DNA from: a virus
Reading direction: 5' to 3' (one strand)
DNA: 64,000 nt
IMG/VR virus record: IMGVR_UViG_3300027763_000029
Under the pieces are notes generated by a model. It did not search any database. It was not told the DNA's origin and saw only the letters and a program-made list of their open reading frames with translations. The translations under genes and the position numbers were made by a program. Positions 34,649 to 61,940 of this stretch are shown here, piece by piece. Positions within the stretch are counted from its first letter, which is position 1. Each line of letters starts with the position of its first letter.

Positions 34649-37600
34649 TTAAGCCGTATGACCAACGCGACCCATAATTGCATCTGGATTTCCTGCTGTA
34701 ATTTGAGCCTCGCTATTTTTATGTAAACCATAGACAAGTGTCGATGAAGTATTGTTAGAAATAACCTGAGAGTTTGCCGCTGCCTGAGCAAGTAACTGTT
34801 GACCCATTTCTCCAAGACCAGTATGATGATGTGTTTGTGTTACACTTTGAGAAACAGCAAGCTGTCCAGGGAAATTGCTTGCATGTTCACCAAATTGATT
34901 AGTTATACTTCTAAATTCCTGCATAGCTGCTTTAAATTCTTTTGCATCCAATGTCATATTACCACTATTTACATTTCCTCCTTTTGCAAAGTATTGGGGG
35001 GATACTGAGCCACCATCAGATAGATGTATTGGCATTACCATAGGAGGAGCAACCATAGGAGCAACCATACCTCCTTCGGCCAAATATTTTACCACTCCAC
35101 CTTGACTATAAGCTCCACTATTAATAGCTTGTAACATTGGCATATGTTGTTGGGCGGCTTGGCGATTGATAACAAATTCGCCAGGAGTTAACATTGCTGG
35201 AACGGTGTCGGTCCCCATTGGTTGAGCATTTATAAAAGCCCCATTACTAGCATATACTAAACCTCCAGTAGCATATCCAGTTCCTCCACTAGGAGTTTTC
35301 CAATTCTTTCGTTTCTTTTTATCAGGATCAATAACTGGCATTTTAGCAGCATTGTTGTTTGTAGCATCTATGTTCGGCATTGGTGCTGCATTATTATTTG
35401 TAGCATCGAACATCGGCATTTTTGCCGTACCTTCTGTATTTTCTTCGCCAACAACATCTTTAGGGGTGACAGATCCTGATAATAGATTGTATAAACCATA
35501 TCCAATAGTACCGCCAATAGGAGCAGCCATACCCAATCCTGTTAATAGCATTCTTGTGCTTTTTGATTGCTGTTTTTTTTCTAGAAGCGTTCGATATTCG
35601 GCATCAGCAGCATTCTTTATTCTTGCCATCTCTTCAGTATCACCAGCTGCCTTTGCTTTCTTCCACGATTTATTAAATCTATCCTTTACTGCTGCAAGCT
35701 CTGGGTTGGAGGCTCTTCTTTTTTGTTCCAACTTTTCTGACGATACTCTTCCAGCAGCTACAACTTCAGGAGATGAAGCTGGTTTTATAGGAGGGTTTAT
35801 TAGATCATCCAAAGATTTTTCAAAATCCGAAATCCTTGTTGAAAATGATGACATTTCTTCTGATGATTTTGTTGCTCGTGAAAGTCCATTGATCTCAGAT
35901 ATCATATCAGAAGCTTTATCGCCTTTTCTTAATCTATCTTGAATAATATTTATATCTAATCCTGCTTTATCCCAATCTTTTCTTAATCTATATAGTTCTC
36001 TACTATCTTTACTATATCCTAATGCTTTCCCTACCGTATCATGGAACTCTTCTGATGCTGCTGTTCCATTTGTTCGTCTTCTCTCTACTTCAGCATCAAA
36101 AGTTTTTGTAAGAATGTCCACATTTTCTGGCTTTCCTACAAACATATTTGGCTGACCTTTGACAAATCCTGCGCTTCTTCCTATTTTTAACTTGCCTGAT
36201 TGTTCTAATTCTAATAATTGATCTTTATACTTGTCATATGTTTCTGCTGAAGTTAATAATGCTGCTGGTTTACCTGGTTGATCCGAAGAAAATCCTCTTC
36301 TTGCTGACCTTATCACACTTTCTACCTCTTGGTCTCCACTAATTACTCCAAATCCAGCAGAAGCTAGTTGATCAACTCTTGATATTGAAGAAGGATTGAC
36401 TGGTGTTTCTGTTGCCTTTTTGGTTGCTTGGTCTACTGATGCTTTTTGTTGTGGAATTGCACCGGCTTCTGGACCACCCTTATCAGTATAGCTAATATCT
36501 CCTTTGTAAGTTGGAAATAAATCAGGATAATCTCTATAAAATTCATCCATCATTTTCGAAGGACCCAATTTGCCTGCCTTGTACAGAGCTGTATGTATCT
36601 CGCTGACTATCCCTCCCTTGGTTCTAAGGCTCGACATTAGAGGAACTTCAAAATTATCAAATCTAGGATCATAAGTTTTATCGGTACCTTCTTGTTTTCT
36701 TTTAGCAAGCCATCTTTTACGCAAATCTTTTAATGCCGAGGTTAACTTTTGAGTATCAATTGTATCAAGTCCCCCATCAATATTAGGATCATACCTTGTG
36801 GTTCCAAATTTCCCTAAAGAGACTGTGTCTCCATAATCCTTTGCTCCGCCAGCAAAAAGAATATCATCACCCAATGCTTCCATACGTTTAGTTATAGCAA
36901 TAGCTTCTTCAGCAGTACCCTTTTTACCATATGCTACTAAGAATCTTTTATCCCTACCCGATACAGAATCTTCAAATGAGTGCTGCTTGAAACCAAACGG
37001 ACCAAGCATCTGTGCTAATTCTGGATCTGCTGCCATACGAGATATCATTTCGTCCATTTGACCGGCCTGTACGGCAAATCTCGGCTTGTATCCAGTATTT
37101 ATTGGCTCTCTATAGTCAGAAGATACTTCTTTTGGTTTAAACCACCTAAGCATAGTACCCGTATCTTCATATGAGCCCGCGCGAACTTCTGTATTATACA
37201 AACCCTGTTTCATACCGGTCGGGTCGTCTTTTGCTCTTTCTAATAAATCTTTGGGACTCCTGGCTTCAACTTCAACCGGCTTAATAGAACCAGCAGCTTC
37301 TTCAGCAGCACTAACGGCAGGATTAGCTGTTTCCACATTATTTGTGTTTGATCTGGTATTTATAACAGTTTGTTGCTGTTGTGGAGTTAAATTTGCCCAA
37401 GCTTCTGTGGTATAATCATCGGGCTTTCCTGTGGTGCTAATTGGTTTACTTGATGAAGAGCCTTCAAACATACCACCCATCAATTTATCAACTTCTGCCT
37501 GCTCTTTAGCATTAGCAGCATCTATTTTTTGTTGTCTATATTCAGTGACGCTTATTCCAGCCTCATTTGCTTTTGTTCTATCAAAAATATCAGACCTGAT

Positions 37601-43600: not shown

Positions 43601-46600
43601 ATTTTTAAACTCTAAAAATGCGATGGTACCTTTACGTAAAGTGTCTGTCATATTCCCTATGGAGTTGCCAAATTTTTTATCTATTTCATCAGATAATTTA
43701 TCTACTTTTTCTCCAGGTTTATCAAATTTTAATTTATCTACTTCATCTATAGTATTTTTTAATGCTAGTTTTAAATTATTTCTTATAACATCTGGTAAAC
43801 CTTTTGTAGATTCATCGAGTGCAGTTTCTAATTTTGGTCCTAGTTTTGTTAAATCTTCATTACCCTTATCGCTATTAATAGCATCAGCTATTCGTTTATT
43901 AAGATTTCCTTGTATTTCATCTATTTTAGTTTGATCAAACCCTAATGCATCACTGATCAAATTAGCTTGATTGATTCGTGATTTTTTTTCTTCTACCGGA
44001 ATACCCTGAGCGTTAGGGTTGGTAATTTCAAATGCGATTTTCCTATAATTAGATTTAACCCTATCTCTTTCCATGGCATAAGCTTCTGGATTCTTTAACA
44101 TATCCAACTCTTCGCTGTCTGCATTGGCTACTCTTGGTTTTCCTGTAAGAGCTTCAGAATTACTTCTTCTTATTTTAGCAGCGTTATTGGTATTAAATTC
44201 TACCTTAGAAACAGCAGAAAGAATAGATCTGCCAAGACTATCAAATCCTTGTGTAGCTTTTCTTGTTGATCTTTCTAATTCTTCCATAGCTTTAGCGGTT
44301 ACTGCCGTCCTTTGTGCAGCCAAAAACACTTCGTCTTTCAATAGTGCTATTCTACGAGATGCTAGTTCTTCCTGAATTCTTTTTTGTTTTGTTGTGCCAG
44401 TAGCAGCGAAAGCAGCATCCTCCATATCATTTATTTTTGCTACAAATGCTAGAAACTCATTATCTGCACTAGATATACTGTCAGCTAAAGCAGCAAAACC
44501 AGGATCTTGGGAGATATCTGATAGTGTACTTCCTCTACTAATTTTAGATTCAATAATATCTCTAGCAACTTTTGCCGCACCGCTATTTTGTTTTGACTGC
44601 TCAGAGACTAGTTGGTCTATGTCTTTTTTATCTAATTTTGGTACCGGACCACCCATAAAAGATCCAAGTATTCCTCTGCTATTAGCTTTATTTTCGGCTG
44701 CATTTTTAATTTTAATGGCAAAATCATCATCATTTAATTTTAGTCTATCCGTTAATGGTCTAATAAGATTATCATTATTTCCTGTTTTTTGAGCAGCCTC
44801 TACCCCTTTTGCTATTTTCTCATCAATATCTTCTATTTTTTTGGTTCTTTCAGCTTGTTCAAATTCTTTGACTGCTTTTGTTGCCCCATTGAATCCTTCC
44901 TTTAAAGATAAAAGAGCCGTACCAGCTAGGGTAAAAGCAGCAATATATGGTCCAACAACAGGGATTAGTGCAGCACTAGAAGCTATGCTTAAGCCAGAAG
45001 CAAAGGTACTAACTCCAGCCTCTATACCCGCACCCACTTTGGATCTGGTTTTTTTATCTCCACCGCCAGGAAGCATGCCCGCAATATTATTTCCTTGACC
45101 GGCAATTATACCAAGACCCAAGCTTGCGAAGTATCCAGCATTACCAGTACCCAATCCACCCAAGGATTGTATCATCCTATTACCTGTCCCAAGTAAATTC
45201 TTAGGAGAAAGACTCTTTCTCAATCCAGCAAAATTAGATCCAAAATTTTCTAGACCAGTACCAGTATATCTTGGTATTAAGTCTCTACCGGGTCCAGCTA
45301 ATCCTGCTGCTGTTGCCATATTCCTAGCAGCAATCCTTCGATCTGCCAACTCTTTTTCTGTTAAAGCTCTGGCTTCAGCTGCTCCTTTGCCTAAAGAAAT
45401 TAATTCTTGAGTACGTAATACTCTATATTCTTTATCCATTTGAGCTAGAAACTTACGATCCATCATGCTTTGTTGAGCATATTTTCTTACGTCTTCACCA
45501 ACAATTCCTTGAGATTTTAAATCAGATCTACTAACACCAGTTATTGATGATGTTGCTCTTAGAGTAGATGATTCATATATTTTATTTTTTTGTTCCTCTG
45601 TCAAAGGACTCTTATTCTGTTTTGCTCTGGCTTCTTCTGCTCTTGATATGACATCTTGAGCATGCTTATTGGACTCTAATAGAATTTGTTGTTGAACTTC
45701 ACCGGAAGATCTATCTCTTACTGCACTGAAGGCACTCTCTAATGCATTATTTTTACCAACTTCTTTATTTTTAGATTTTCTAATTGTAGCTAAAGCATTT
45801 TCAGCTGCTATTATTTGACTAATACTACCACCAGCCGCCTTGACTCTATCTACTTCAGATTTGGCAGCTTTTTCTGCTGAGGCATATGATACTCTTCCTT
45901 CATTAAGTAGTAATGATGAAACTTTTTTACTACTTAATCCAAGTTCTTGAATAATTTGTTCTAGTTGTTTTAACGAAGTAATTGACTCTTGGTTGATTCT
46001 TATCGTTGAGCTTTGTATTGTCTCTGGTCTTATTGGTAATCCAGGTCCACCACTAGCAAAAGTTTGAAGTCCAACGCTTCCGCCACTAGCATACAAACCT
46101 AATGCTTTTGTTGCTCTTTCTCTCAGTATAAAGCTACCAACAGGTAAATCTATTGGACCTATGCTATCACTGGTACCGTTTCCTGGTCCTTTAAAAACGC
46201 CGATGCCACCTTTGGCAAATTTACTCATCCCATTACGGTCAGCCTGATTCATTTCATTTAGTCTTGAATATCCAATTTCCTTAGCTGCTTCTGGTGGTAT
46301 ATAAGCCTCGCCATTAGAAACCATAGCTTGAACATGCCCACCTGATGCATAGCCTCTAGCCTTAAGATAATTACCGATCTGACTTTTTAGTTCTGCTGGT
46401 CCATTAAGAGTAAGTTTAGCGTCTGTTGGAATGTTTTGAGGAAGATTAAAATATTTAGCAGCACTTTGAAGACCGTCTGGGAAATCGATGCCATAATTGG
46501 TGGCAGCTTTATTTGCTATTGGACCACCCAATTCATTGATAACTCTTTCAGCAAGATATCCTTTTGCATTGGCTTCGCCAAGCTTTTTCCTAGATGTTGG

Positions 46601-49600
46601 TCCTACTCTTTTCTTTTTATAGAGATATGATCTTATACCCCTCTTCTCAGCTTCTGCTATATTTCTATCGTCGTCATCAATAAAAGCGCCCTCTGGATTC
46701 ATCAAGTCTGCCTTGAGGATAGCAACTTGTTCTGCTGTAATATTTTCTCCACCAACACCCTTAATTCTACCAAGAGGAATTGGAATACCTTGTTGTGCTA
46801 ACCAACCAGCAATCAGATCCATTGTTGATTGTGGTCTAGCAGAAATAATGTGCAGATTATCTGCAAAAGATGGAGTCTGCTTAACTGTATTTGCTATGGC
46901 TTTACCCAAAGCACTAAGTTTAGCTGTTTTAAGAGCACCAGATACTTTTTCTCTATTAGAGAATTCGCTATATTTTGGTTTTCTCGGATCGGCTAAGATT
47001 TTATCTGCACCAAAAGCTAATGTTCTATCAAAATCAGCATATAGTGGACCTGTTTGCTTCAGAATATCCTTAATCATAATGTTTCTTGAAGTTTTATTAG
47101 CTATATCATTTAATCCGACGGTCATCTTACCTAATAACTTCTTTGACATTTCAGAATCTAAAACACCACTAGTAATTCTAACTTTAACTGGATTTTTTAA
47201 TCCTGGAATATCCATTCTGGGAGTTGTAGCAAACGCCTTGCCTTTGAATCCAGCAGCACCAAATAAGAGACCCTCTGTGGTTGCTTTTTCTATATCCAGA
47301 GCATTTGCTGCTTTAATTCCAGAAGTTTTTTCTGTATATTTTGCTAAAATTTTATCTTTGATAGCTTGTTCTGTTGGACTTAATGATTTTCTTTTCTTTA
47401 ATATTTTTTGTATATCACCAGCATTTGATCCAGTATCTTTAATAACTTCATCTAAAGTAAGAACTCTGAATATCTCTGTAGAAGTAGCTGCTGTGCCTGA
47501 CGTTGGAGTCACTAAACCCGCATTAGCAAATTTACGAATAAAACCGCCAGAAGCTTTATTAGTTTGATCTTTTTTATATAGCCTGCGAATTTCTTCAATA
47601 ACCGAGCTTTTATTCGGCATTTCAAAAACTTCAATATTGCCGATATCTTTTGTCTCTGGAGAAAATTTAGTAAAGGGTTGCGTTATATTTCTAGTCACTC
47701 TTGCTCTTAATAATTTATCTAAATAATCTGTTTTAGATACAACGCCACTAGGACGAAATTTTACTTCTCCAATAGATCTTCCATTTTTACTTATTAAATC
47801 AATTGGATAACTATTCCTATAAGGAACATTTTCAATTTCACCAGTTGGTATATAATTTCTTATTCTTAATTCATCTCTCATATGATTTGACAAAAGTCTT
47901 TCATATGCTTCAGACCATTTAGGACTTTCTCTTTGAGTACCTAGTTCATCAACTCTTCTTTGACCTTCTTTTCCAGCTAAAAAGTCTTGTCCTCTTCTAG
48001 ACAACAATCCAGCATAACTTTTTGATTGTACTGGTGTGGGTTTATTTTTTCCTAATAAAAATTTTTGATTTGCTTGAGAAATAGGCAGTCCTTTTCTCAT
48101 ATCATTATATATTTCTCTTGATATAGTCTTAACATCCAAACTTAGCATATTCGGTGTTATCTGTTGAATAGATGCTGAAGCACTATCTTGTTTAGGATTA
48201 ATATATTGTGCTACTCTAGGATTTTGAGAGATTAGTGAAACAGCTTGTGGTAGAGTTTTAATCTCTATTGGTCCTACCTTTCCTCCTTCAGTATACTTAT
48301 TCATTCTATGAAGGTTATGTGACCCTATGGCCTTAACTGCTGGTTTACTCATCACAAATTCGCCTGGCATCAACTTAGCATCAATAGAGTCTGTGTCTCC
48401 GCTTCCAGGAACTAATCCACCACTAGCAAATCTTCTAACTGGACCACCAGAACTCATACCTGGACCGCCACCCAATCTATTACCTAGTCCTTTAGCTCCA
48501 CCAGAACCTCTTATTCCACTTAAAAATCCGCTACCAAATTGTACGGCTGCCGAGGCACCTTTAAATGCTAGCATAACACCTAGAACTGGTAATATTCCTT
48601 TAATACTATCAGCAGCCTTAATTAAAGCACTAGTAACAGATAATGCTCCTTGAGCAATTGCTTGAAAACTATCTGATTTTCCAATATCTCTGAATAAAGC
48701 TAAGAATTGCTCACGAACTTTGGATATTTGCACAGCTAAAGACTCTTGAGCTTTTGCAGCATCTGCTGCTAATGATCCTTGTCCTGTTTGAGCCACCTTC
48801 AATGCATCTTGTGCTGTTGCGAACTGTTGAATAAGAGGAATAACTTTACCAATCTGTCGGAATCCACCAAGTTCTTCAACAATCTTTGAAAACTTTAAAT
48901 CTCTTGGATCTAAATTACCTAGACCTTTACTTAATAGTTCAACGGCCTTATAAGCTCCTACGAACTTACCATCTAGATCTTGTAGATTAACACCATATTC
49001 TTTGAGAGCCTCTATTGTGTCTCCTCTTTGAATTCTGGTAAAGATAGTTCTTAAGCCAGTAGCAATAGTTTCTGCGCTTTCACGAGTAGTAGCTCGTATA
49101 CTAGTGAATACGGCTAAGAATTCATTAAGGGCATCTGTACCTTCACTAACTCCCTTACTCGCTGTGGCGAACACACCACCAGTACGCTGAATGGCTGTAA
49201 TTAAGTCAGCAGCTTCAACAGCAAATTTAGCAGCAACAGAGTTGACAGAGCCTAGTGCTTTTTCTAGATCGCCAGCATTAATACCGAACTGTCTCATCAA
49301 AGCAATAGAACCTTCAACAGTCTCATTCATACTATCGAATGACGGGGCTAATGAACTTAATGCTAATGCTTTAAGAGCTCTTTCAGTATCTCTTGCAGAT
49401 AAGCCGGCCTGAGCTAGTGTGCTAGATATTTGAGTAAGTTCTGCTGATCCAACGCCCAAACCTGTTGCTAGACTTGTGATGGTGGTTTCAAGGCCCTTCA
49501 ATCCTGCTGCTGACTGACCGGTAACCTGTTGTAGCTTTACTAATTCTCTATCATAATCAATATATGCTCTAACACCATTATTAATAGCATTAGTTAATCC

Positions 49601-50047
49601 GTATATAACACTAGTAACAGAGGTGATTGCAGAAAATCTTCTAAAAGCAAGTCCTGCTTGTCTACCGAACTCTGTCATTTCACTACTTGCTGATCTTAGT
49701 TGTTTGGCATTATTGGTCGATGCCTGAGCGACTCTATTTAAAGCAGTAGCCGAGCTATTGAGTACTTGGGGTAAGTTAGAAGCATTTATCGATCCAATAG
49801 AAGTACTAAGATTACGAATAGCAGTAGCAGCAGCATTTGCATTTCCTGTTGTTGTTGATAGTGTTCTGTTAAATGTTAATAGTGCAGCATTTATTCTATT
49901 TAAGTTTGTGGTAGCTGCTGGAGCAATAGTGAGATTTACCGAAGCATTAATGGTACCTAATTGCTTTTTAATGTCTGCTACTATAACAGAAACATTACTT
50001 GGTCCTTTAAGATTAAGCTGTGCCGTTAGATTAAAGCCTGCTGCCAT
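34649..50047 (-). CDS. Giant multidomain tail tape measure protein (5132 aa)
   Basis: TP901-family TMP core near the N-terminus (LAQAGL...ALKALAL...TTRESAETIATGLRTIFTRI), Ala/Gly-rich hydrophobic segments, GTDTVPAMLTPGEFV modules, and position after the tail tube and chaperone-like genes. Confidence 0.9.
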   Translation of the reverse strand: MAAGFNLTAQLNLKGPSNVSVIVADIKKQLGTINASVNLTIAPAATTNLNRINAALLTFNRTLSTTTGNANAAATAIRNLSTSIGSINASNLPQVLNSSATALNRVAQASTNNAKQLRSASSEMTEFGRQAGLAFRRFSAITSVTSVIYGLTNAINNGVRAYIDYDRELVKLQQVTGQSAAGLKGLETTITSLATGLGVGSAELTQISSTLAQAGLSARDTERALKALALSSLAPSFDSMNETVEGSIALMRQFGINAGDLEKALGSVNSVAAKFAVEAADLITAIQRTGGVFATASKGVSEGTDALNEFLAVFTSIRATTRESAETIATGLRTIFTRIQRGDTIEALKEYGVNLQDLDGKFVGAYKAVELLSKGLGNLDPRDLKFSKIVEELGGFRQIGKVIPLIQQFATAQDALKVAQTGQGSLAADAAKAQESLAVQISKVREQFLALFRDIGKSDSFQAIAQGALSVTSALIKAADSIKGILPVLGVMLAFKGASAAVQFGSGFLSGIRGSGGAKGLGNRLGGGPGMSSGGPVRRFASGGLVPGSGDTDSIDAKLMPGEFVMSKPAVKAIGSHNLHRMNKYTEGGKVGPIEIKTLPQAVSLISQNPRVAQYINPKQDSASASIQQITPNMLSLDVKTISREIYNDMRKGLPISQANQKFLLGKNKPTPVQSKSYAGLLSRRGQDFLAGKEGQRRVDELGTQRESPKWSEAYERLLSNHMRDELRIRNYIPTGEIENVPYRNSYPIDLISKNGRSIGEVKFRPSGVVSKTDYLDKLLRARVTRNITQPFTKFSPETKDIGNIEVFEMPNKSSVIEEIRRLYKKDQTNKASGGFIRKFANAGLVTPTSGTAATSTEIFRVLTLDEVIKDTGSNAGDIQKILKKRKSLSPTEQAIKDKILAKYTEKTSGIKAANALDIEKATTEGLLFGAAGFKGKAFATTPRMDIPGLKNPVKVRITSGVLDSEMSKKLLGKMTVGLNDIANKTSRNIMIKDILKQTGPLYADFDRTLAFGADKILADPRKPKYSEFSNREKVSGALKTAKLSALGKAIANTVKQTPSFADNLHIISARPQSTMDLIAGWLAQQGIPIPLGRIKGVGGENITAEQVAILKADLMNPEGAFIDDDDRNIAEAEKRGIRSYLYKKKRVGPTSRKKLGEANAKGYLAERVINELGGPIANKAATNYGIDFPDGLQSAAKYFNLPQNIPTDAKLTLNGPAELKSQIGNYLKARGYASGGHVQAMVSNGEAYIPPEAAKEIGYSRLNEMNQADRNGMSKFAKGGIGVFKGPGNGTSDSIGPIDLPVGSFILRERATKALGLYASGGSVGLQTFASGGPGLPIRPETIQSSTIRINQESITSLKQLEQIIQELGLSSKKVSSLLLNEGRVSYASAEKAAKSEVDRVKAAGGSISQIIAAENALATIRKSKNKEVGKNNALESAFSAVRDRSSGEVQQQILLESNKHAQDVISRAEEARAKQNKSPLTEEQKNKIYESSTLRATSSITGVSRSDLKSQGIVGEDVRKYAQQSMMDRKFLAQMDKEYRVLRTQELISLGKGAAEARALTEKELADRRIAARNMATAAGLAGPGRDLIPRYTGTGLENFGSNFAGLRKSLSPKNLLGTGNRMIQSLGGLGTGNAGYFASLGLGIIAGQGNNIAGMLPGGGDKKTRSKVGAGIEAGVSTFASGLSIASSAALIPVVGPYIAAFTLAGTALLSLKEGFNGATKAVKEFEQAERTKKIEDIDEKIAKGVEAAQKTGNNDNLIRPLTDRLKLNDDDFAIKIKNAAENKANSRGILGSFMGGPVPKLDKKDIDQLVSEQSKQNSGAAKVARDIIESKISRGSTLSDISQDPGFAALADSISSADNEFLAFVAKINDMEDAAFAATGTTKQKRIQEELASRRIALLKDEVFLAAQRTAVTAKAMEELERSTRKATQGFDSLGRSILSAVSKVEFNTNNAAKIRRSNSEALTGKPRVANADSEELDMLKNPEAYAMERDRVKSNYRKIAFEITNPNAQGIPVEEKKSRINQANLISDALGFDQTKIDEIQGNLNKRIADAINSDKGNEDLTKLGPKLETALDESTKGLPDVIRNNLKLALKNTIDEVDKLKFDKPGEKVDKLSDEIDKKFGNSIGNMTDTLRKGTIAFLEFKNKGADRFVESLNRIVDSVLAANESLDKARNIATETDLTLKEALTGAPTSIRQRIGIRDNEIKNQTAGTKEANQIVAREVGFNLNNSTADPKLIRQNIENLAEARKKLSERELKTPVTDRGPIQSDMANLDLQIIKNKNALEKLANSSDIVTAAFGQLRDAQKMQADRLQNLDQILSSTPQELQKLNESLIRVQQRMMGINPGPSRAAKQAYDMTFRQTGGNRFLAMQAGQAQMAQDRGIDLRTMEQYKSNFILDIKNRAAAQGKELSDQDAEMEFRKRSGNLRGQMANELGFMNPGVAQTIMASVDPTRDPVIAQLADTIKVNSAIQVSANEQIAALFNKDAISENTSAILLLKEQIENFSGVLAGLQNIKLADLGINNPLRKADGGVIYASVGGSLVNFSPKGTDTVPAMLTPGEFVVNARATAQNLSLLESINSGNSLVGNTAMMSSGGVVYLSTGGRTRKDIEDKLKQERIESDNINQTIRSRTEAYKAPDSKERMEDEKKQKELLDEEARLMGGDFDKFREVSDRRIAHETEMRRKSSSYKTEEERSRLGRIEVNGSQRYAAQANMGDESATTDRSLLNDLDLVENRPNDSNMGRIGVNSVNNALRDAGIPERALAFGPGTGLEFHSDGINWTQRIADEQAKPDFGARVSQYYIKEKEKERKLAEERLKKENVQYNTNPVKPPVPAGAPVPAVPPAAPPAKAPAAPAPVPAVPPAAPPAKAPAAPAPVPAAPPAAPAPPAGAPAPPARPKVFRKPNNMGEIGLFREGLARGMTIDEIKAERQRNFLKKKGKRPIGEKDASKQELEDFRKTRAKRFRDQYSDTSAAAGDYRPSLVPGDPRAQIPGKQNLDDFYRLDVNEDGVLSGKERTAYSELDTDKNKEISTDEWLGRGFDPGDVLQRHKYGIDIYDEKKTAARARELSEAMPSYEEKAANNEPIFDIEGNPTTLEEKRKELATLQETLGYYKTPKSLIASQRNRDDAVASRLNGRSWVVDRALQRIYSDRRYFEENRQKIQSQNPDADPDKIFNMTVDSIRDQQYGIGRDENFWRSIGVTSTPNSYNESSALSHIRDKEDLSTRDDPTGQKTRDYIDEYKSSQSAREQSNRVDRGNGRDIAGPDRAIVGTQGPVGKMNNLIDEQEKGNPAINDARQKAYEKQQERRRVEGERQMALDARDKELGMITSDRGGNPPGYDPGSAASAGFEQQKQRRREQIIESQYKFTNKDGTASTTGTIDNVDFKAGTVRIAKIDPKTGMPITRKIPIYGNGEVTKKQLEAQGRDPEKFVTGYKEEQIYTTVPLDQLSDQSRTKVRAHALEKEVDKAKTGENFLIGNDSGKQISGRIYSVNEKSGSAVIQRANGTRFTVPLDKLAPQSRNIALEQSRNDSTISQLEHNETLKGISEQVSADINASLPSPPIPLPEVIPTIEDPMKQLAMEQDKLDALPVMPPEPKKSGARVDPITGRVLDAQKATTAGGPSRAQFFNGNADNAKQEAIDIKEQQATIAIEREKSEKRFQELRSRAIGQSKYDRSWLGEYWPKEWGGAEKPKKRLTAKEYEELGTYEAERGIPFGDRRGSTVSANTIRRETLTINQMSQLDKQSLQDTKKKLEIARDSEGGEAVGLAAQRAIVPLLAGTAAIAGAPIILPALGVTGLAAAGLTILGGVTASLTANALQDVALEGTDFDKRQKELAQKRPRETAVGSLLTGLLTGNPFTGSSTIVRSLLTRTVSGSTEAAIGAGVRGATNRGDFGTGQDALMDFISGFILPSSNFGGKGTKNYARPEGPAKPTSFNDIAQELRFEDFNRIMDRNDRLAAIEKKNQIKDNKTQIRDAQERVAEAREAQRDQSIFEFMSPILHLVPNNGFGIPGMKGARIPMSESSSPIMRGISSLLSGIDSEFKSAGAASQTKAQIDKVIAENPYLNKTQLAEKLVKDGIDPAIAEKTATARNNKFLSDLAIEKEARKAEAKARFSAEYKEKTKDIKDPKERAKIRAEINEKLNKEASSIRSDIFDRTKANEAGISVTEYRQQKIDAANAKEQAEVDKLMGGMFEGSSSSKPISTTGKPDDYTTEAWANLTPQQQQTVINTRSNTNNVETANPAVSAAEEAAGSIKPVEVEARSPKDLLERAKDDPTGMKQGLYNTEVRAGSYEDTGTMLRWFKPKEVSSDYREPINTGYKPRFAVQAGQMDEMISRMAADPELAQMLGPFGFKQHSFEDSVSGRDKRFLVAYGKKGTAEEAIAITKRMEALGDDILFAGGAKDYGDTVSLGKFGTTRYDPNIDGGLDTIDTQKLTSALKDLRKRWLAKRKQEGTDKTYDPRFDNFEVPLMSSLRTKGGIVSEIHTALYKAGKLGPSKMMDEFYRDYPDLFPTYKGDISYTDKGGPEAGAIPQQKASVDQATKKATETPVNPSSISRVDQLASAGFGVISGDQEVESVIRSARRGFSSDQPGKPAALLTSAETYDKYKDQLLELEQSGKLKIGRSAGFVKGQPNMFVGKPENVDILTKTFDAEVERRRTNGTAASEEFHDTVGKALGYSKDSRELYRLRKDWDKAGLDINIIQDRLRKGDKASDMISEINGLSRATKSSEEMSSFSTRISDFEKSLDDLINPPIKPASSPEVVAAGRVSSEKLEQKRRASNPELAAVKDRFNKSWKKAKAAGDTEEMARIKNAADAEYRTLLEKKQQSKSTRMLLTGLGMAAPIGGTIGYGLYNLLSGSVTPKDVVGEENTEGTAKMPMFDATNNNAAPMPNIDATNNNAAKMPVIDPDKKKRKNWKTPSGGTGYATGGLVYASNGAFINAQPMGTDTVPAMLTPGEFVINRQAAQQHMPMLQAINSGAYSQGGVVKYLAEGGMVAPMVAPPMVMPIHLSDGGSVSPQYFAKGGNVNSGNMTLDAKEFKAAMQEFRSITNQFGEHASNFPGQLAVSQSVTQTHHHTGLGEMGQQLLAQAAANSQVISNNTSSTLVYGLHKNSEAQITAGNPDAIMGRVGHTA
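41401..41530. repeat. GC-rich 57-bp tandem repeat encoding PVPAVPPAAPPAKAPAAPA in the TMP
   Basis: ccgccgg starts at 41401, 41458 and 41515. Confidence 0.85.
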
Positions 50048-52607: not shown

Positions 52608-53723
52608 TTAAAAATAGTAGTCAGTATCTACAGTATTATCTGACCATTTTTCTTGAGCGAAAGTGCCGCTACTACTAATCTTAAACTTATTATAGGTCTG
52701 AAAGCTATATGAAATAGTAGCATTACCACCACCAGTATCTCCACCAGTATAATTTACTGATGTTAGCTTATTCTTACCACCAAGATCAAGACTTAGATAG
52801 CCAGAAGTATTACCTGTTCCGGCGCAAACAGCAATCTTAACAGATTTATCTATAACGTTTCTGTAGTTCTGTCCACAACCAGTAACACTACTAAAGTCAT
52901 TAGCATCAACCGTATCGCCATCACTAGCAATAACCTGAAATTCTGATTTAACTTCTAATGGAAAGCGAACATAACGGAAATATGGGGCCATAGCACCAAG
53001 CTCATAAATAGCTTCACGACCAAGGTCAGCACTGAGAGTAACACTTTGTACGTATGGGCGATTAATCTCTCTGCCTGAAGGAATTGGGATTCCAGCCTTG
53101 CCTGTTGGAAGAATACTTTGTCCTGGATTAAAGTTATATCTGCGAACGATACCAGGAGCTGTTGGAGTTTTTCCCTCATCAGATGGATCAAATTCACTTG
53201 TTGACATTGGAGAACCACTATTCCAGATCTTATTATTACCAACAAGAGTAACTTCTTCTGTAGCGTTTCCTTCGATGGGAAAAGTAAAATTGAATCTACT
53301 CAAATACATACCAGAGCAATCAACATAATGTCTAGCAGTGCCTGTGGTCGCAGGAACAGTATCTGGCCAAATACCTAGTCTAAAATTAACTCTATTATTA
53401 ACTAATTCTACTAGTTCTTTATTATTAGCTCCTGCGATACCACTTGGTCCACACATGCACATAGCATATAATGTTGGTGTTCCGTCAAGAACTTTATTAA
53501 GTGTTACTTCAACCTCTGGAACATTCTCTAAATTATCATAAAGATCTAATTGACCGAGTTGGAAAACTGGTGTTAGAGCAAAATTTGTTGTCATACCAAC
53601 GCTTTGTAGTCCCTGTGGAACATACCACGAACTACCATCATCATATAATGCTGTTCCATCTGCATTTTGTGGTTGTAGCTGAACTGACTGACTAGCATAA
53701 AAAATTCTGTTATTAGCTGGCAT
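52608..53723 (-). CDS. Major tail tube protein
   Basis: GLQSVGMTTNF...VFQLGQ...PEVEVTLNK and a second half VQSVTLS...REAIYELG; position upstream of the chaperone-like and TMP genes; strong GGAG RBS. Confidence 0.7.
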   Translation of the reverse strand: MPANNRIFYASQSVQLQPQNADGTALYDDGSSWYVPQGLQSVGMTTNFALTPVFQLGQLDLYDNLENVPEVEVTLNKVLDGTPTLYAMCMCGPSGIAGANNKELVELVNNRVNFRLGIWPDTVPATTGTARHYVDCSGMYLSRFNFTFPIEGNATEEVTLVGNNKIWNSGSPMSTSEFDPSDEGKTPTAPGIVRRYNFNPGQSILPTGKAGIPIPSGREINRPYVQSVTLSADLGREAIYELGAMAPYFRYVRFPLEVKSEFQVIASDGDTVDANDFSSVTGCGQNYRNVIDKSVKIAVCAGTGNTSGYLSLDLGGKNKLTSVNYTGGDTGGGNATISYSFQTYNKFKISSSGTFAQEKWSDNTVDTDYYF

Positions 53724-53834: not shown

Positions 53835-56800
53835 TTATATAGTTGGATAAATCTCTATACTCAATCTTAATACACCATGATATAGGTTGTTGCTAAAAAC
53901 ATTTAATTCTGATAAAACAGCATTTTTTATATATGCTCTAGCCAAGTAAAAAGATTGATCGTTGTAAATTTGATCATAATTTAGCCTATTAGGGTTAGGT
54001 TCTCCCCTGTAATTTGTAAACTGCCTATCATTCTTAATAAGTTTTTGCAGATTGTAGAGATTAAGCATCTTATCTTTTTGCTTTAATAAAATATCTATTA
54101 GATTATTCCTTTGAACTGGGCTTTCTGTTAATATGTGAATCATAACATCTTGTATTAGTATGTTTGTGGTTGTTCCAAGCTCATAAGGGATAGATACTGA
54201 TCTTGGAGCTATATCTATAACTATAGCTGGAAGTTGGATTTTATTATAAGAGGATGTTTTATCCTGAAGTACTGATGGATTGTAAGAATTTTCAACAACC
54301 TCTTTCCACCAAACACTATCACTAGATTTATATACTTGAACTAACCTATAAGAATATTCTAAACTAACATTGCTTTTAGCTGATATATTTTTGTCGAATG
54401 TTACTCTTCCTAATGGATAGTTGATATGGTATGAATATGCCCCACTGCCTGTTGGAGCAGGCAAGAATGTTCCATTAAGATTTATACCAGATATATTATA
54501 TGGGCTGGTATTATGATAATATATTCCTGTCTCATATATCCAGTCTTTTCTTGGTGATTCCCACACTCTTGGATAAACTACTGTTGGATCTCCACTAACT
54601 GGTTTTAGTTTAGAAAAATCTCCACCATCAAGACTATTAGTAGAAATATCAACATTAACAAAAGCTCCAATATTTAAAAATGACCAATCTAAAAAGCTTT
54701 TAAGATTATCTTCTAATGATGCTACTGGACCCATATGTCCTATATCCGAAACTAGATTGAAAGCAGCAGAGGCTGGGCGACGATTTCGATTATTATTCGG
54801 ACTAGAACTTGGAGTTGGAGTAGTAACAATACTGTTGGTTGAGCTAGGGGTAGGGGTCGGAGTGTTTCCTATTATTGGTGTCGGAGTTGGTGTAGGAGTT
54901 GGTTGATTAGGCAAAACCCTTTGACTTTTAATAACTTTTAGTTCATCTATATATCCTGTAAAATAACCTCCTGGCTCAGTTGTTCCACCTACTCTTCCAA
55001 TTGTAATAATACTATCTGCATCCGTCATTTGATAGGAATCGTCTATGCTCAAGATATCATCTACATATACCTTAATATTAAACATATCTCCAAACAAAGG
55101 ATTTCCACTTACCACAACATGATGCCATTCATTACTGGAAATAAATGCTGGTCCAATTAGACCATCACCACCATTATGACCATAAAAGCTAATATGATCA
55201 TCGGTAATATAAACGACCCAAGATAAAGAAATTCCGTGCTGATCTTTGCCTATTATGGATCCTTGTGCAATCTCTAATGTTGGATAGAACCAAGCATCAA
55301 TTGTGAATTTACTATTTGATAAGTTAAAAATAGGTGAATTAGCAATTTTTAGATTAGAAGATCCATCAAGATATAAACTTGTTCCTCCAGAAACGCTTTG
55401 AGAGTCACTAATGACTGGAGAACCTTCGATAGAAATGACATTATTATATTGTGAACTATCTATAAATGTTGAACTACCATTATTACCATCAAAATGCATA
55501 TCAAGTACTGTGGTATCTTCATAATGAAATATGTCTCTACCAGATGTTGTCCTTAAGTAATTAATATCAAAAAAATCACTTCTAACTTTTATTACTCTAT
55601 ACTCATATGGATTTGGTCCACTTTCTGAAAAATCCAAAGCAAAAGTTTGTACTTGTGTTCCTAGTCCATTAGAGTCTCCTTTATATTCGATCATTCGTGG
55701 ACTTAAAGTTACATAATTAATAGTATGAGTAAAAGAATCATCTAATTCCTTTACTATTGTATAACTTCCTTGAAAAGGAATGCCAGAATCTCCCTTTATT
55801 CTTGATCTACATATTGCTGTACTATTAGTAAGATCTATTTCATATATAACGCCACCAGCTAAAGTACCAGTAAAAGATCCATCATCAAAAATTGAAACCG
55901 TATCATTTCCACTAGTCAATGGCTCTATATCCATCTGCCATCTTGCATCATGCTGGGCATCCAACCCATTGTATTCGTCGCCTGTTACTGTTAAAAAATT
56001 TATTGGATTAGTTTGTATGGTTATAGCTTCAAGTGACCCATTTGTATCAATAGCCCAAATAACATCCTTTGTTTCATAATCAATACAGAATACCACATTA
56101 TGATTTCTACAACTAACAACTATATTACCTGTAATAGGATGAACATCTAAAGAATTTGCGTGAAACCACTCAGGATCATTAGAATTAAAACTGTCACCAC
56201 TCCACCATTCCCATACAATTTGATGATTAGGTGACTGTTCCTGAATATAAAATCCATTATTATAAGATAAATAGATTATATTTCCTCGTCTATTAATTGG
56301 ATTTTTTATTTCTTGTGTTTCATGAACATCGATAGTATGATTGACTGATCTACTGTCAGGATTTATCATATTAATGATATTAACTAAATCTAGATTATTT
56401 TCAGATAATTGTATTATATATCTTTCTTGATCATTCCAAGCGTTTGTTATTAATCTATTATTTTGGTATCCTTTATGGAGACTAATTGTTTGAGAAGGAG
56501 ACTTAACGTACCAAATTGGAACTCCATATTGGTCATAAATAGAACAATATATTTGAGCTGAGAAGCCATCGCTTGGAACAGCTAAGTAGTATCCGGGTAT
56601 ATAATCAGCTGTTTTTTCTGAAATAGTAGCAACAGGAAAATCCTTTGGTATTATTTTTATGAAATACTCTTGAATATCATCTGTTATATATAGAGTTTTA
56701 TTTACAGATCCTGATGGAATTACTTCTAATGTTCTATCTATTTCATTTACAAATAATGATATATTCGAAACTCCAGACACTGAGGATTCTCTAATATAAT

Positions 56801-56918
56801 AGTCATGTATATCAATACTAAAAGGAGGATAAAGACCACCTCCATCGCAATCTGCAAGTATGCCTGTTATAGCAGTATCTGATAATACTGGTATAAATAT
56901 GTCACTACTAATAGTCAT
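53835..56918 (-). CDS. Fusion: arylsulfotransferase-like propeller + LamG + Thr/Pro linker + tail terminator-like domain
   Basis: ASST-like motifs DVHE, WFHANS, SCRN, QHDARW, IFDDG. LamG: HFDGNNGSSTFIDSS...FTIDAW...GYIDEL. C-terminal QLPAIVID...PYELG...QDVMIHIL, with the gene lying just before the tail tube gene. Confidence 0.7.
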   Translation of the reverse strand: MTISSDIFIPVLSDTAITGILADCDGGGLYPPFSIDIHDYYIRESSVSGVSNISLFVNEIDRTLEVIPSGSVNKTLYITDDIQEYFIKIIPKDFPVATISEKTADYIPGYYLAVPSDGFSAQIYCSIYDQYGVPIWYVKSPSQTISLHKGYQNNRLITNAWNDQERYIIQLSENNLDLVNIINMINPDSRSVNHTIDVHETQEIKNPINRRGNIIYLSYNNGFYIQEQSPNHQIVWEWWSGDSFNSNDPEWFHANSLDVHPITGNIVVSCRNHNVVFCIDYETKDVIWAIDTNGSLEAITIQTNPINFLTVTGDEYNGLDAQHDARWQMDIEPLTSGNDTVSIFDDGSFTGTLAGGVIYEIDLTNSTAICRSRIKGDSGIPFQGSYTIVKELDDSFTHTINYVTLSPRMIEYKGDSNGLGTQVQTFALDFSESGPNPYEYRVIKVRSDFFDINYLRTTSGRDIFHYEDTTVLDMHFDGNNGSSTFIDSSQYNNVISIEGSPVISDSQSVSGGTSLYLDGSSNLKIANSPIFNLSNSKFTIDAWFYPTLEIAQGSIIGKDQHGISLSWVVYITDDHISFYGHNGGDGLIGPAFISSNEWHHVVVSGNPLFGDMFNIKVYVDDILSIDDSYQMTDADSIITIGRVGGTTEPGGYFTGYIDELKVIKSQRVLPNQPTPTPTPTPIIGNTPTPTPSSTNSIVTTPTPSSSPNNNRNRRPASAAFNLVSDIGHMGPVASLEDNLKSFLDWSFLNIGAFVNVDISTNSLDGGDFSKLKPVSGDPTVVYPRVWESPRKDWIYETGIYYHNTSPYNISGINLNGTFLPAPTGSGAYSYHINYPLGRVTFDKNISAKSNVSLEYSYRLVQVYKSSDSVWWKEVVENSYNPSVLQDKTSSYNKIQLPAIVIDIAPRSVSIPYELGTTTNILIQDVMIHILTESPVQRNNLIDILLKQKDKMLNLYNLQKLIKNDRQFTNYRGEPNPNRLNYDQIYNDQSFYLARAYIKNAVLSELNVFSNNLYHGVLRLSIEIYPTI

Positions 56919-56939: not shown

Positions 56940-57587
56940 TTATATATTAGCTTCTACTTCACTTTGTATAAGCTTGTAAATACTTGACTCCAAACGATCA
57001 ACAGCTCTTGTAGTCCAGTTGCTAGAAGCTGTACCAGCAAATTCAGCAGGAACTCTCCAGTTACTATTAGATCTAACCATAATAGCATTGCCAGTACGAG
57101 AATTGCTATTTGGTCCAATTTTTACATTATAATTTTGTACTATGGTTTGACTACCTTTAAATAAAAGCCACTCTAACCAAGGTAAAGAGTATCCTCTAGT
57201 TGTATCATCAACTATTGCACTAGAATCATTGATAATACCATTAATATCGTCTGTTTTGATACCAGTCAACTGAAATCCACCTGATAATCCAGCGTTTGAT
57301 ATTTTAATTGGAAGATTATTGATCGTAATAGTATTAGCTATTTTTTCAACTATATCATCAACAACACTACTGTCTGGTATACCAAATTCAAATCTTAATT
57401 TTCCAGATTTTAAAGAGCTATATTCTGGTTCTTGTTTTAAGGCATCAGATACTAATGGAACTATCTTTATAGAGAGTGATTTAGCTGATTTTTGCATAAT
57501 ACGGTCTAATTCTACTTTGAGTGAGTCTAGGATTAGTCCTCTGATAGTACTGTTACTTTCTAGTATGTTTAATGATAGATTCATCAA
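56940..57587 (-). CDS. Putative neck/tail completion protein
   Basis: Synteny between the head-closure-like and terminator-like genes; LPWLEWLL motif. Confidence 0.5.
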   Translation of the reverse strand: MMNLSLNILESNSTIRGLILDSLKVELDRIMQKSAKSLSIKIVPLVSDALKQEPEYSSLKSGKLRFEFGIPDSSVVDDIVEKIANTITINNLPIKISNAGLSGGFQLTGIKTDDINGIINDSSAIVDDTTRGYSLPWLEWLLFKGSQTIVQNYNVKIGPNSNSRTGNAIMVRSNSNWRVPAEFAGTASSNWTTRAVDRLESSIYKLIQSEVEANI

Positions 57588-58289: not shown

Positions 58290-59216
58290 TTATCCTGCAT
58301 ATGTAATTATTAATTTCCACGAATCAATGGTTCCAATATCTCCAATATCGCTATCAATAATTATGAGATCCCAATTACCATTAGCTGAAGATCCTATAAG
58401 ATTATCTATAGTACTAATAAGAGTTTCATTATTATAGTTTATTGTTGTTGTTTTATCTTTAATTTGACATAAACCACCACTAATAACATTATTTAGATAT
58501 ATATTATTTAATGCTCTATTAGAAAACATAAAACTAAATCCAGATTTATAATTTGATATTTTTGAATTAGCAGATAGTAGAATTTTATCCCCAGAAGGAG
58601 GAGCTAATATAAAAATTAAATCTTGTGGGCTGCTGTGGGTTAAGCCATTAATTGCAATTTCAACATTATCTATCAGCCTAGTATCACTAATAGAGATTGT
58701 ATCCACTATGCTGTCATTATCAGGAATATTTAAACCACTTCCAGTATATATTATACTATAAATATCTAAATTATTACATTGGCTATCACAAGATTTTAAT
58801 AAATTATTAATTGAAGCGCTAATATTTGCACAATCTGGTAATGTCGTTGGGATATTTCTTTTAACAATACCTACAGATCCCGTAGCTAAACGATATGTGG
58901 TTAATCCTCCTCCAGGGTATTGTTCTCTTGGTTCCTGTAAGTCTAAGTCATAAATAAACGAATTAAATGTATAAGTGTTGGTGATCCTAGCTGGAATTTG
59001 AAGAACTATGGTACCATCAGAATTTGCTTGAAAATCATACTCATCACCAGTATATCTATTTGAGAATATATAAGCATCACCTGTATCTGTCAACCACTGC
59101 ATTAATACACAGTAATCTCTTATATCTACAGCATTTCCATTCTCATCAGCATACAAAAAAGTTATTTTAAAAGCTGAACCTTGTTCTATGACAAAATTAT
59201 AATTAGCTGCTGGCAT
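58290..59216 (-). CDS. Virion adaptor-like domain fused to proprotein-convertase P-domain
   Basis: N-terminus YNFVIEQG.F...YDLDL. C-terminus IPDND...THSSPQDLIFILAPPSG...ANGNWDLIIID...GDIGTIDSWKL. Confidence 0.7.
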   Translation of the reverse strand: MPAANYNFVIEQGSAFKITFLYADENGNAVDIRDYCVLMQWLTDTGDAYIFSNRYTGDEYDFQANSDGTIVLQIPARITNTYTFNSFIYDLDLQEPREQYPGGGLTTYRLATGSVGIVKRNIPTTLPDCANISASINNLLKSCDSQCNNLDIYSIIYTGSGLNIPDNDSIVDTISISDTRLIDNVEIAINGLTHSSPQDLIFILAPPSGDKILLSANSKISNYKSGFSFMFSNRALNNIYLNNVISGGLCQIKDKTTTINYNNETLISTIDNLIGSSANGNWDLIIIDSDIGDIGTIDSWKLIITYAG

Positions 59217-60114: not shown

Positions 60115-60828
60115 ATGATGATTTCGTATTGTTCTCAAATTAAGAATAGATTTTATCAATTTCAACAAACTTTCTATCATAATATAAATCATATCAAGAA
60201 TAATCCAGATACTGAATGGGTTATTGTGGATTGTGATTCAAAGGATGGATTACATGAACATATGTTGAAGTTTGGAATCTCTGATAGAGTTCATTATCAT
60301 AGAACATTAAATTATCATAGTTATTCAATTCCTGTTGCTAAGAATTTAGCAGTGAGGTTGAGTTCTGGGGATTATGTGTTCAATTTAGATATTGACAACT
60401 ATATTGGAAATGCCACAAGTCAAATTAAAAGTCTTGGAACAAAAACTGGCGTATGTTGTGATATTTTCAAGCGTGGGGTTTATGGTAGAATAGGGTGCTC
60501 TAGAAGAGTTTTTAATATGGTGGGTGGTTATGATGAATCTTTTTTACCAGCTGGAAAACATGACATCGACTTTATGGCTAGATGCAAATTAGTTAATTAT
60601 TATTTCAAACATATTCCATGTCTGATTAGTCCTATTTTAAATTCTAAAAAAGAAACAACTCTTAATACTGGTAGTGATATGGATTGGGAAACTATGAATA
60701 ATCTGAATGGAGAAAAAATGAAATATAATATAGAGAATAAAATCCACTATCCAAATACAAAATTTACAAGTTGTGATTTAGAATACAATTTTACTAAAAA
60801 GATTACACTATCTGAGGAGATAATATAA
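60115..60828 (+). CDS. GT-A fold glycosyltransferase (GT2/GT7-like)
   Basis: EWVIVDCDSKDG, AKNLAVRLSSGDYVFNLDID (DxD), VGGYDESFLPAGKHDIDF. Confidence 0.85.
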   Translation: MMISYCSQIKNRFYQFQQTFYHNINHIKNNPDTEWVIVDCDSKDGLHEHMLKFGISDRVHYHRTLNYHSYSIPVAKNLAVRLSSGDYVFNLDIDNYIGNATSQIKSLGTKTGVCCDIFKRGVYGRIGCSRRVFNMVGGYDESFLPAGKHDIDFMARCKLVNYYFKHIPCLISPILNSKKETTLNTGSDMDWETMNNLNGEKMKYNIENKIHYPNTKFTSCDLEYNFTKKITLSEEII

Positions 60829-61940
60829 TGCTATTAACATTAAATAAGAATAGAATGGACCAACTAGCCCCTGATCAGATAGCATTTTATCAAGAACAAT
60901 GTGGAGATATTCTTAATGCTCCACTACCAAGTATTATATCAAACTCTGCTGAACTAAAACAAAAGACAGGAGCTAATAATTTTACAAGTTTAGCTCCATA
61001 CTATCACCCAGACCCAAACTCTCCAACGGGATTTCCTTATATCCGAATTGATGGAACAAGAAACCTTGAGTCTAGAAAAAGTTCTGATAGTCCATACTTA
61101 AATTCTATACTATCTTTAGTAGCTTCAGCATCTACTTTATACTACTACACTAAGTCTGAAGACTATGTTATTAAAGCTATGGAAGCTCTTCAAGTTTTCT
61201 TTCTTAATGAAAATACTAAAATGAATCCTAGTATGACATATAGTGGATTAGTTATCGGCGATAGCATGGATGATCTGCGAATTAGAGGAGCAATTATAGA
61301 TAGTAATATATTATCAGTATTACCAGATTTTATTGAACTGCTTAAACCTAGTTCTCATTGGACAACTGAACTAGACAATGGAATGATTTCATGGTTTGAC
61401 TCATTAAGCGATTGGTTCAAAACTAATCCTAGAGGAGTCTTGCAAGCTAGCTATAGCCATAATATTAAAACCTCTTATATGAAACAATTATGTTCTTATC
61501 TTTGTGCATGCGGAAAAGAAGTTGAGGCACGAACCTATCTGGAGAATAATTTAACAGCTTTGCTAGTTGCTCAAATAGATATAGATGGTAAACAGGTCTT
61601 AGAAATGAATAGAGTAAAAAATAGACATTATAGTAATTTTAATCTAATACTACTAGTAAATCTAGCTACTATAGCAAAATCTTTGGGGATCGACGTTTGG
61701 AATTACGAAGATAGCGAAGGTAAAGGAAGTATTAAGAAAGCTATGAAATATTTAGCCTATTATTATCTCCATCCTACAGAATGGACTACTTCTGATGAAG
61801 CTAATAATTCTGCTATGACAAGATCATGGCTCCAAGCTGGTGTTGAACTCTATGATGATCAAATCTTACAAGATGTTTTTAGAGAAGTTAAGATTTATAA
61901 TTTTACTAGTGTTCCAGATTATATCTCTTTGCCTAATTAA
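60828..61940 (+). CDS. Alginate lyase family-like protein
   Basis: SLAPYYHPDP...PYIRIDG, FFLNENTKMNP, QIDIDGKQVLEMNR...HYSNFNL. TAATG-coupled to the GT gene. Confidence 0.8.
   Translation: MLLTLNKNRMDQLAPDQIAFYQEQCGDILNAPLPSIISNSAELKQKTGANNFTSLAPYYHPDPNSPTGFPYIRIDGTRNLESRKSSDSPYLNSILSLVASASTLYYYTKSEDYVIKAMEALQVFFLNENTKMNPSMTYSGLVIGDSMDDLRIRGAIIDSNILSVLPDFIELLKPSSHWTTELDNGMISWFDSLSDWFKTNPRGVLQASYSHNIKTSYMKQLCSYLCACGKEVEARTYLENNLTALLVAQIDIDGKQVLEMNRVKNRHYSNFNLILLVNLATIAKSLGIDVWNYEDSEGKGSIKKAMKYLAYYYLHPTEWTTSDEANNSAMTRSWLQAGVELYDDQILQDVFREVKIYNFTSVPDYISLPN

Follow-up and report, generated by a model that had tools for sequence, protein, structure and literature searches.

A phage tail terminator gene fused to an arylsulfotransferase-like module and a LamG domain

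We analysed a 64,000-nucleotide stretch of viral DNA (the window, by which we mean this whole stretch), which is the reverse complement of bases 1-63964 of the 151,782-bp IMG/VR virus record IMGVR_UViG_3300027763_000029, a record that is complete by CheckV. One of its genes, at positions 53,835 to 56,918 on the minus strand, encodes a single protein in which a sulfotransferase-like module, a LamG domain and a Thr/Pro-rich linker are joined to the N-terminus of a phage tail terminator. We favour, with moderate confidence, the reading that this gene encodes a tail terminator with a swappable N-terminal cargo, and that the cargo includes a sulfate-ester-directed sulfotransferase-like module that may be active and probably has an auxiliary role at the neck of the virion. 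The parts of this reading differ in strength as follows: that the fusion is real and its C-terminal domain a true terminator is close to certain; that the cargo is displayed at the neck is quite likely; that the sulfate-ester pocket is functional seems reasonably likely; and whether the module would turn its substrate over, rather than only bind it, is a nearly even question that we lean slightly against. The parts of the protein and their window coordinates are:

53835..56918, minus strand: the fusion gene (P0001), 1027 amino acids (aa), encoding the sulfotransferase-like module, LamG, the Thr/Pro linker and the tail terminator (open reading frame (ORF) list and translation; the orthologue P0002 has the same architecture)
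56634..56918, minus strand: residues 1-95, the N-terminal region that precedes the propeller-like part and is a conserved piece of the module in every homologue
55524..56633, minus strand: residues 96-465, a catalytic region like that of the arylsulfate sulfotransferases (ASSTs), with its Pfam PF05935 match at residues 235-350 (window 55869-56216)
54927..55364, minus strand: residues 519-664, a LamG / concanavalin-A-like lectin domain (Pfam Laminin_G_3)
54771..54911, minus strand: residues 670-716 (~47 residues), the Thr/Pro-rich flexible linker, which is the fusion joint (translation and DNA)
53835..54770, minus strand: residues 717-1027 (311 aa), the tail terminator domain (structure prediction, VIA-align and Foldseek)

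The gene is one uninterrupted ORF whose stop-to-stop frame is longer by 7 codons only, and its start is sound since the N-terminus is conserved in P0002. The DNA at the linker junction is clean, and a scan for promoters and transcription terminators around the gene found nothing over background. The LamG domain scores 44.7 bits against Laminin_G_3 (PF13385; curated cut-off 27.6) and covers profile positions 3-142 of 151.

The C-terminal domain was identified as a tail terminator by its fold. An exhaustive HMMER search with residues 711-1027 found homologues in 520 cluster representatives, 142 of them at E < 1e-30, and an AlphaFold2 (AF2) model built with a 77-sequence alignment of this domain reached a mean predicted local distance difference test score (pLDDT) of 92.3 and a predicted TM-score of 0.90 (a single-sequence AF2 run of the same domain was unusable, with pLDDT 32). 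The terminator core fold is a beta-sheet packed with two helices. When the model was compared with known structures by VIA-align, it matched the phage T5 terminator p142 (8bcu_A) with Z 12.5 and a root-mean-square deviation of 3.0 Å over 142 of the 160 p142 residues, and 40-odd further terminator or cap chains followed at Z 7-12 (those of DT57C, Douge, SaPI1, GTA, Mu and pyocin R2, as well as lambda gpU at 9.3 and T4 gp15 at 9.7) before the first non-terminator row at Z 5.9. The significant Foldseek matches in the PDB (E up to 0.001) are likewise all neck or tail-terminator entries, from P74-26, T4 (gp15) and P1. About 140 of the 317 modelled residues align to known terminators, and in the model the first helix of a gpU/p142-type core appears to be separated from the core sheet by a beta-rich insertion of ~145 aa. 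By sequence alone the domain has few handles: it has no Pfam match, it and 77 of its homologues match no PHROGs family, and a PDB sequence search gave nothing with the terminator profile and nothing useful with the whole protein. A search of the 151,782-bp record for the terminator family turned up this gene and no second copy.

The position of the gene agrees with this identification. Along the direction of transcription, genes for proteins of 171, 308, 77, 168 and 215 aa are followed by the 1027-aa fusion and then by genes for 371, 346, 98 and 300 aa and a 5132-aa ORF, so that the fusion lies between connector genes and the tail tube gene. Its two immediate neighbours are:

52608..53723, minus strand: the tail tube protein, 371 aa, next gene downstream (Atlas features 0.97-0.98 and structural TM 0.71-0.84 to Phage_tube_2 (PF18906) / Phi812_tail_tube clusters)
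56940..57587, minus strand: the next gene upstream, 215 aa, conserved directly before the terminator in relatives (47% identity to its counterpart in contig L002 and 28% to that in L003)

The 215-aa protein found no family match in profile searches and is presumably a neck or connector protein. The same gene order is kept in four related contigs (L002, L003, L005 and L006), with BLAST-confirmed orthologues on both sides and a syntenic tail tube gene in each, and there the slot holds stand-alone terminators of 318, 327, 311 and 311 aa. The terminators of L005 and L006 are 79-82% identical to the window domain and begin at the position that aligns to residue 717, with stops in the frame upstream; cargo and terminator are therefore joined precisely where an unfused terminator would start. 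No sheath family (PF04984) was found in the genome and the best terminator and tube matches are of T5 type, so a long non-contractile, T5-like siphovirus tail is likely, with which the absence of PF04984 is consistent but which it does not prove. The initial annotation of this DNA, made from the letters and ORFs alone, had placed LamG, a Thr/Pro linker and a C-terminal domain of about 310 aa behind a sulfotransferase-like part and had put the gene in the tail-terminator slot; all of this was borne out, and the check that it had proposed, whether homologues of the C-terminal domain are stand-alone proteins of ~300 aa, came out positive (mostly ~315 aa, see below).

The N-terminal module belongs by profile to the arylsulfotransferases. 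It scores 35.1 bits against Arylsulfotrans (PF05935), above the curated cut-off of 24.2, with residues 235-350 on profile positions 158-267 of 374 (protein and genome searches agree), and the orthologue P0002 also passes the cut-off of PF14269 (28.2 against 27). Matches of the fusion protein to propeller-family Pfam profiles are weak (Beta-prop_ACSF4, E 0.028; PQQ_2, E 0.25). The E. coli enzyme EcAST has an N-terminal beta-sandwich followed by a 6-bladed propeller (PMC13426309); residues 1-95 of the window protein have no Pfam match and may be the counterpart of that beta-sandwich domain. Word-index searches found relatives of residues 1-465 in 54 clusters, all of which carry precomputed PF05935 matches, and residue conservation was read from a MAFFT alignment of these 54 members, which are 25-74% identical to the window module. 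Only 15 of the 465 positions are near-invariant, and H253, N255, R271 and H323 are among them. In EcAST the residues that coordinate the sulfuryl group are His252, His356, Asn358, Arg374 and Thr501, and His436 is the nucleophile that becomes transiently sulfated (PMC13426309). The corresponding codons in the window are:

56322..56324, minus strand: His199 (in DVHET), the candidate equivalent of EcAST His252, kept in 52/54 members
56154..56162, minus strand: His253-Ala-Asn255 (in WFHANS), equivalent to EcAST His356 and Asn358 by HMMER profile alignment to 3elq, each kept in 53/54
56106..56108, minus strand: Arg271 (in SCRN), equivalent to EcAST Arg374 by HMMER alignment to 3elq, kept in 53/54, with one Lys
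55950..55952, minus strand: His323 (in QHDARW), equivalent to the EcAST sulfo-histidine His436 by motif match, kept in 54/54

The Gln that precedes His323 is kept in 50 of the 54 members. In 3elq, His436 lies in YTQHTAW (QH being residues 435-436, as counted on the printed alignment), and the variant chain 4p04 differs at exactly His436. A bridge between the phage modules and solved enzymes is provided by P0205, a 470-aa cellular-type member that has a QHDAR identical to that of the window module and that HMMER aligns to the solved sulfotransferase 9kf4 at E 4e-15 with four motifs in register (D-x-H-[DE]-x-Q, H-x-N-S, S-x-R and Q-H-D). The first of these, around H199, is common to the window module, P0205 and 9kf4; H199 is a candidate counterpart of E. 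coli His252. In a search with the family profile the phage module clade stands well apart from the cellular-type ASSTs, with the E-value jumping from 1e-107 to 1e-12 at the first cellular-type sequences. The nearest Atlas clusters in a feature search are aryl-sulfate sulfotransferases only, at a weak score of 0.81.

Other members of the family show where such modules are carried. Mtd_N, an N-terminal domain of receptor-binding proteins of tail-fibre type, is present in 17 of the 54 clusters and LamG in 17 of the 54. Where its position was checked in Mtd_N-bearing members, the module makes up the distal C-terminal part (residues 300-774 of 776 in one protein). The module is thus at the free end of a virion appendage both in the Mtd_N members checked and in the two terminator fusions that carry it. 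The sulfate-transfer or sulfate-binding role that the initial annotation had proposed fared less evenly than its reading of the gene's architecture: the four motifs it named are present and conserved, the ASST profile check is passed with a His/His/Arg/His set that aligns to the AssT active site, and the terminator is fused at the expected slot, whereas transfer or binding of sulfate itself is a prediction from the conserved residues.

How might such a protein work? A terminator closes off the tail tube and joins it, as a ring, to the head connector, and because terminators assemble as hexamers, the fusion would project six arms from the neck as a collar. Each arm would carry its cargo at the free N-terminus, first the sulfotransferase-like module and then LamG, on a ~47-residue Thr/Pro tether that, if extended, could span roughly 10-15 nm. 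The module most likely still binds a sulfate ester, since the residues that hold the sulfuryl group and the transiently sulfated histidine of AssT appear to be kept, and the ester may also be turned over through a sulfo-His323 by ping-pong chemistry that is independent of 3'-phosphoadenosine-5'-phosphosulfate (PAPS). As no such nucleotide cofactor would be needed, this chemistry should be feasible on a virion outside the cell. The likely role is an auxiliary one, in which the module would adhere to glycans or phenolic sulfate esters of the host envelope or matrix, or would edit them; capsule, exopolysaccharide or matrix material would be what the arms first touch or modify. An ancillary role is favoured because the neck is far from the tail tip.

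Several observations weigh against this reading. The PF05935 match spans just 110 of the 374 profile positions, and matches of the family profile to solved ASSTs are weak (E 0.002 to 0.06). The propeller fold and active-site geometry of residues 1-465 are putative. HMMER gapping to 3elq puts the catalytic His 8 residues off QHDARW, so the equation of H323 with His436 depends on the shared Q-H-x-A-(x)-W motif and on the P0205 bridge. Hexameric display is argued by analogy with other terminators and we infer the exposure of the terminator N-terminus; a collar at the neck would be far from the tail tip, which makes direct receptor work unlikely. The close relatives whose terminators are ~80% identical, and a complete 170-kb relative, do without the sulfotransferase-like module, so the module is accessory and dispensable. 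Finally, the residue conservation fits binding without turnover equally well.

This last point leads to the alternative that survives best, in which the module is a lectin-like adhesin whose old sulfate pocket, together with LamG, holds sulfated or anionic glycans and turns nothing over. The module is paired with LamG, which has a lectin-type fold, and in other phages it sits where receptor-binding heads sit. Lactococcal neck collars carry carbohydrate-binding modules that provide low-affinity ancillary binding (PMC6669499). Conserved pocket residues are to be expected in a binding site as much as in an active site. We nevertheless regard a binding-only collar as unlikely, though not negligibly so, as the nucleophilic His323 is kept without exception across the family alignment, its Gln neighbour nearly so, and all the aligned sulfuryl-coordinating residues are kept as well. 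Enzyme-derived proteins that only bind often lose the nucleophile.

Support for a terminator that displays cargo comes from other fusions. P0002 (1066 aa), which is encoded by an independent JGI metagenome contig, has the same four parts in the same order; it is 68% identical to the window protein over residues 1-686, and its residues 757-1065 match the terminator profile with hhalign probability 100. P0098, a fragment at a contig end, has a linker and terminator 89% identical to those of P0002, preceded by ~150 aa unrelated to the sulfotransferase-like module or to LamG. A ~90-aa cargo domain in this protein is 79% identical over 90 aa to a domain at G000:C1:116738-117007 in the same phage genome as the fusion gene, outside the window; terminator socket and fibres therefore take their domains from one common kit. 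P0008 has another small cargo ahead of its terminator domain, and Thr/Pro linkers akin to the window's precede the terminator domain in P0002, P0098 and P0008. In P0069 (1959 aa), two LamG matches and long repeats are followed by a C-terminal terminator domain.

These are exceptions in their family. In a set of 156 terminator-family sequences (the 150 best representatives of the 520, plus added sequences) nearly all are stand-alone, with a median length of 318 aa; 6 of the 156 have an N-terminal extension of at least 50 aa, and at the C-terminus all end flush except two, which run on for 93 and 109 residues. Two long family members of 567 and 697 aa (P0020 and P0022) apparently owe their length to large insertions inside the terminator domain and not to N-terminal cargo, which points to a further site that tolerates added sequence, perhaps within the beta-rich insertion. 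A maximum-likelihood tree was made from 76 terminator domains; its five fused rows require five label changes, and the well-supported branches force at least four gains or losses. On this tree of sequences, cargo is gained or lost repeatedly on the terminator N-terminus. The window terminator groups with the unfused terminators of L005 and L006 (SH-aLRT 100), and P0002 is the next sister with a support of 88, which is not decisive; the sulfotransferase-LamG cargo may have been present in the ancestor of this small clade, with two later losses, or may have been transferred, and we prefer neither. An N-terminal socket also fits what has been reported for T5 p142, in which an N-terminal His6 tag gave a soluble monomer and a C-terminal tag gave fibre formation, and fits the account of the extra domains of known larger terminators as concerned with sheath termination or as duplications (10.1101/2024.10.16.618446).

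Could the cargo be made and yet be absent from the mature virion? It might be cleaved off at the Thr/Pro linker, or a short terminator might be made from an internal start at Met729, which would leave the N-terminal part as a free or assembly-time protein. An ATG (Met729) does lie just inside the terminator domain with AGGA three bases upstream, Thr/Pro linkers are in general accessible to proteases, and six 78-kDa arms might crowd a siphovirus neck. Met729, however, is not conserved (P0002 and P0098 have Leu and Ile there), and a start at this codon would delete ~12 N-terminal residues that stand-alone terminators keep, and we judged the internal start unlikely on the first of these grounds. 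Recurrent, differing cargos on the same socket also fit display better than they fit a discarded pro-piece, and we consider loss of the cargo before maturation very unlikely. An artefact, in which misassembly or a sequencing error merged a fibre gene with the terminator gene of a metagenome-assembled record whose closest terminator relatives are unfused, is excluded as a chimera by the same four-part protein in a second, independent assembly at 58-68% identity and is in any form exceedingly improbable given a third case with the same linker-terminator joint (P0098), a clean frame and flanking genes in conserved order. Display of the cargo by an intact fusion at the neck thus remains the reading that we prefer.

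A wider proposal can be made from the family as a whole, namely that the 54-cluster phage clade, in its fibres and in the window terminator, consists of enzymes that sit on the virion, need no cofactor and transfer sulfuryl groups or desulfate, thereby editing sulfated glycans on the host surface, and that the terminator N-terminus is a general socket. We offer this tentatively, as a possibility on the less probable side. If it is true, this clade would be a new chemical class of receptor-modifying phage enzyme, and an active module would also offer a new, naturally tethered source of enzymes that sulfate or desulfate without a cofactor. A conserved and apparently intact PAPS-independent active site on virion appendages would point to new phage-host surface chemistry; we know of no cultured phage whose virion surface chemistry uses a PAPS-independent sulfotransferase site.

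Searches of phage collections and of the literature agree with the novelty of the arrangement. Neither domain matches PHROGs v4, in which the whole-protein matches are limited to the LamG and linker regions, and tblastn against 50,697 GenBank phage records (INPHARED) gave no match for either domain. A literature search found no paper that links an arylsulfotransferase with phage tails and none that names PDB 9KF4, and neither the literature nor the phage collections searched contained a terminator-borne neck decoration of this kind. The host signal is slight. A single-protein query of the GTDB genomes gave no match, and a closer alignment gave three contigs of 3-8 kb in metagenome-assembled genomes (MAGs) labelled Alphaproteobacteria, Saccharimonadales and Woesebacteria; these are probably mis-binned and do not allow a host to be called. 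Among the records behind related contigs, a Lake Lanier MAG, taken as freshwater, is the only one with a name. The idea in the initial annotation of a host or habitat rich in sulfated glycans drew no support from these results.

Some features of the surrounding genes deserve mention. The 5132-aa ORF (window 34649-50047, minus strand) occupies the tape-measure position, and its syntenic counterpart measures 1368 aa in L003 and, cut short by contig ends, at least 1333-1406 aa in L002 and L005. Between the terminator gene and the gene for the 346-aa protein, L006 has two ORFs (L006:6078-7340 and L006:7448-8551) against the window's single tube gene; the extra one, of 420 aa, is 59% identical to the window tube protein and the second, of 367 aa, is at the tube position, which may point to a duplication of the tube. 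The 308-aa protein upstream of the neck genes (window 58290-59216, minus strand) has a C-terminal proprotein-convertase P-domain (PF01483, E 1e-8) and an N-terminal match to phrog_1084, and its L005 orthologue also has the P-domain. The only plus-strand genes nearby (window 60115-61940) lie inside the structural module and encode a family-2 glycosyltransferase (PF10111) and an alginate-lyase-family protein (PF05426, E 1e-48); the Thr/Pro stalks of many proteins near them could be glycosylation targets. The 995-aa product of a neighbouring fibre gene (window 20643-23630, minus strand) has an FGE-sulfatase-type Pfam match (PF03781). It shares phrog_15511 with the giant fibre-like proteins at 12369-19688 and 1049-12310 (both minus strand) and with a 649-aa protein at 23721-25670, and phrog_18508 is common to the same proteins except the 649-aa one. 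The phrog_15511 profile also matches the linker region of the fusion protein, probably through low-complexity Thr/Pro sequence.

Sugar-binding decorations are known on capsids, on tail tubes, on distal tail proteins and on separate neck collars. A terminator that acts as a cargo socket, and virion appendages with a head of the sulfotransferase family, vary this known principle of core-tail and collar decoration in a new way, and with the terminator ring as a display scaffold, the "evolved core protein" principle would also cover the one core tail component so far without decoration. With T5 p142, lambda gpU, SPP1 gp17 and T4 gp15 the window terminator shares the core fold, the slot directly before the tail tube gene and its single copy; it differs in its 311-aa length with an apparent ~145-aa beta-rich insertion, and in the 716 aa of cargo that precede it. 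The extra domains of known terminators that the T5 preprint (10.1101/2024.10.16.618446) mentions are neither enzymes nor lectins, whereas the window cargo is an enzyme-family domain plus LamG.

The neck passage structure of the lactococcal 936 and P335 phages and their "evolved" Dit and major-tail-protein extensions are multi-copy carbohydrate-binding modules that are non-essential and cassette-swapped (PMC6669499). They resemble the window fusion in placing ancillary modules at the head-tail junction or on core tail proteins, and this likeness is functional only. A protein of its own, present in 18 copies and built from a BppU-like N-terminal ring domain and a trimeric coiled coil, forms the neck passage structure; in the window protein the anchor is a terminator-fold domain and the tether a Thr/Pro linker, so that the scaffold is the terminator itself, 6 copies are expected, and the head is an enzyme-family domain and not a BppA-type module.

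Like E. coli AssT (3ELQ) and the enzymes of 9KF4/9KF6, the module belongs to the ASST Pfam family and keeps the equivalents of His356, Asn358, Arg374 and His436. E. coli AssT is periplasmic. The solved and cellular ASSTs are stand-alone soluble enzymes, whereas in phages the module occurs in every case as part of a fibre-like protein or a terminator; PAPS-independent sulfotransferase chemistry needs no nucleotide cofactor (PMC13426309). Another close parallel is found in the Mtd_N-anchored tail-fibre proteins, whose ~465-aa module is 34-46% identical, has the invariant residues in common and likewise lies at the free end of an appendage. Their order is, however, the inverse of that in the window fusion: in the fibres the anchor (Mtd_N, beta-roll) is N-terminal and the module C-terminal, and in the fusion the module is N-terminal and the terminator that anchors it is C-terminal.

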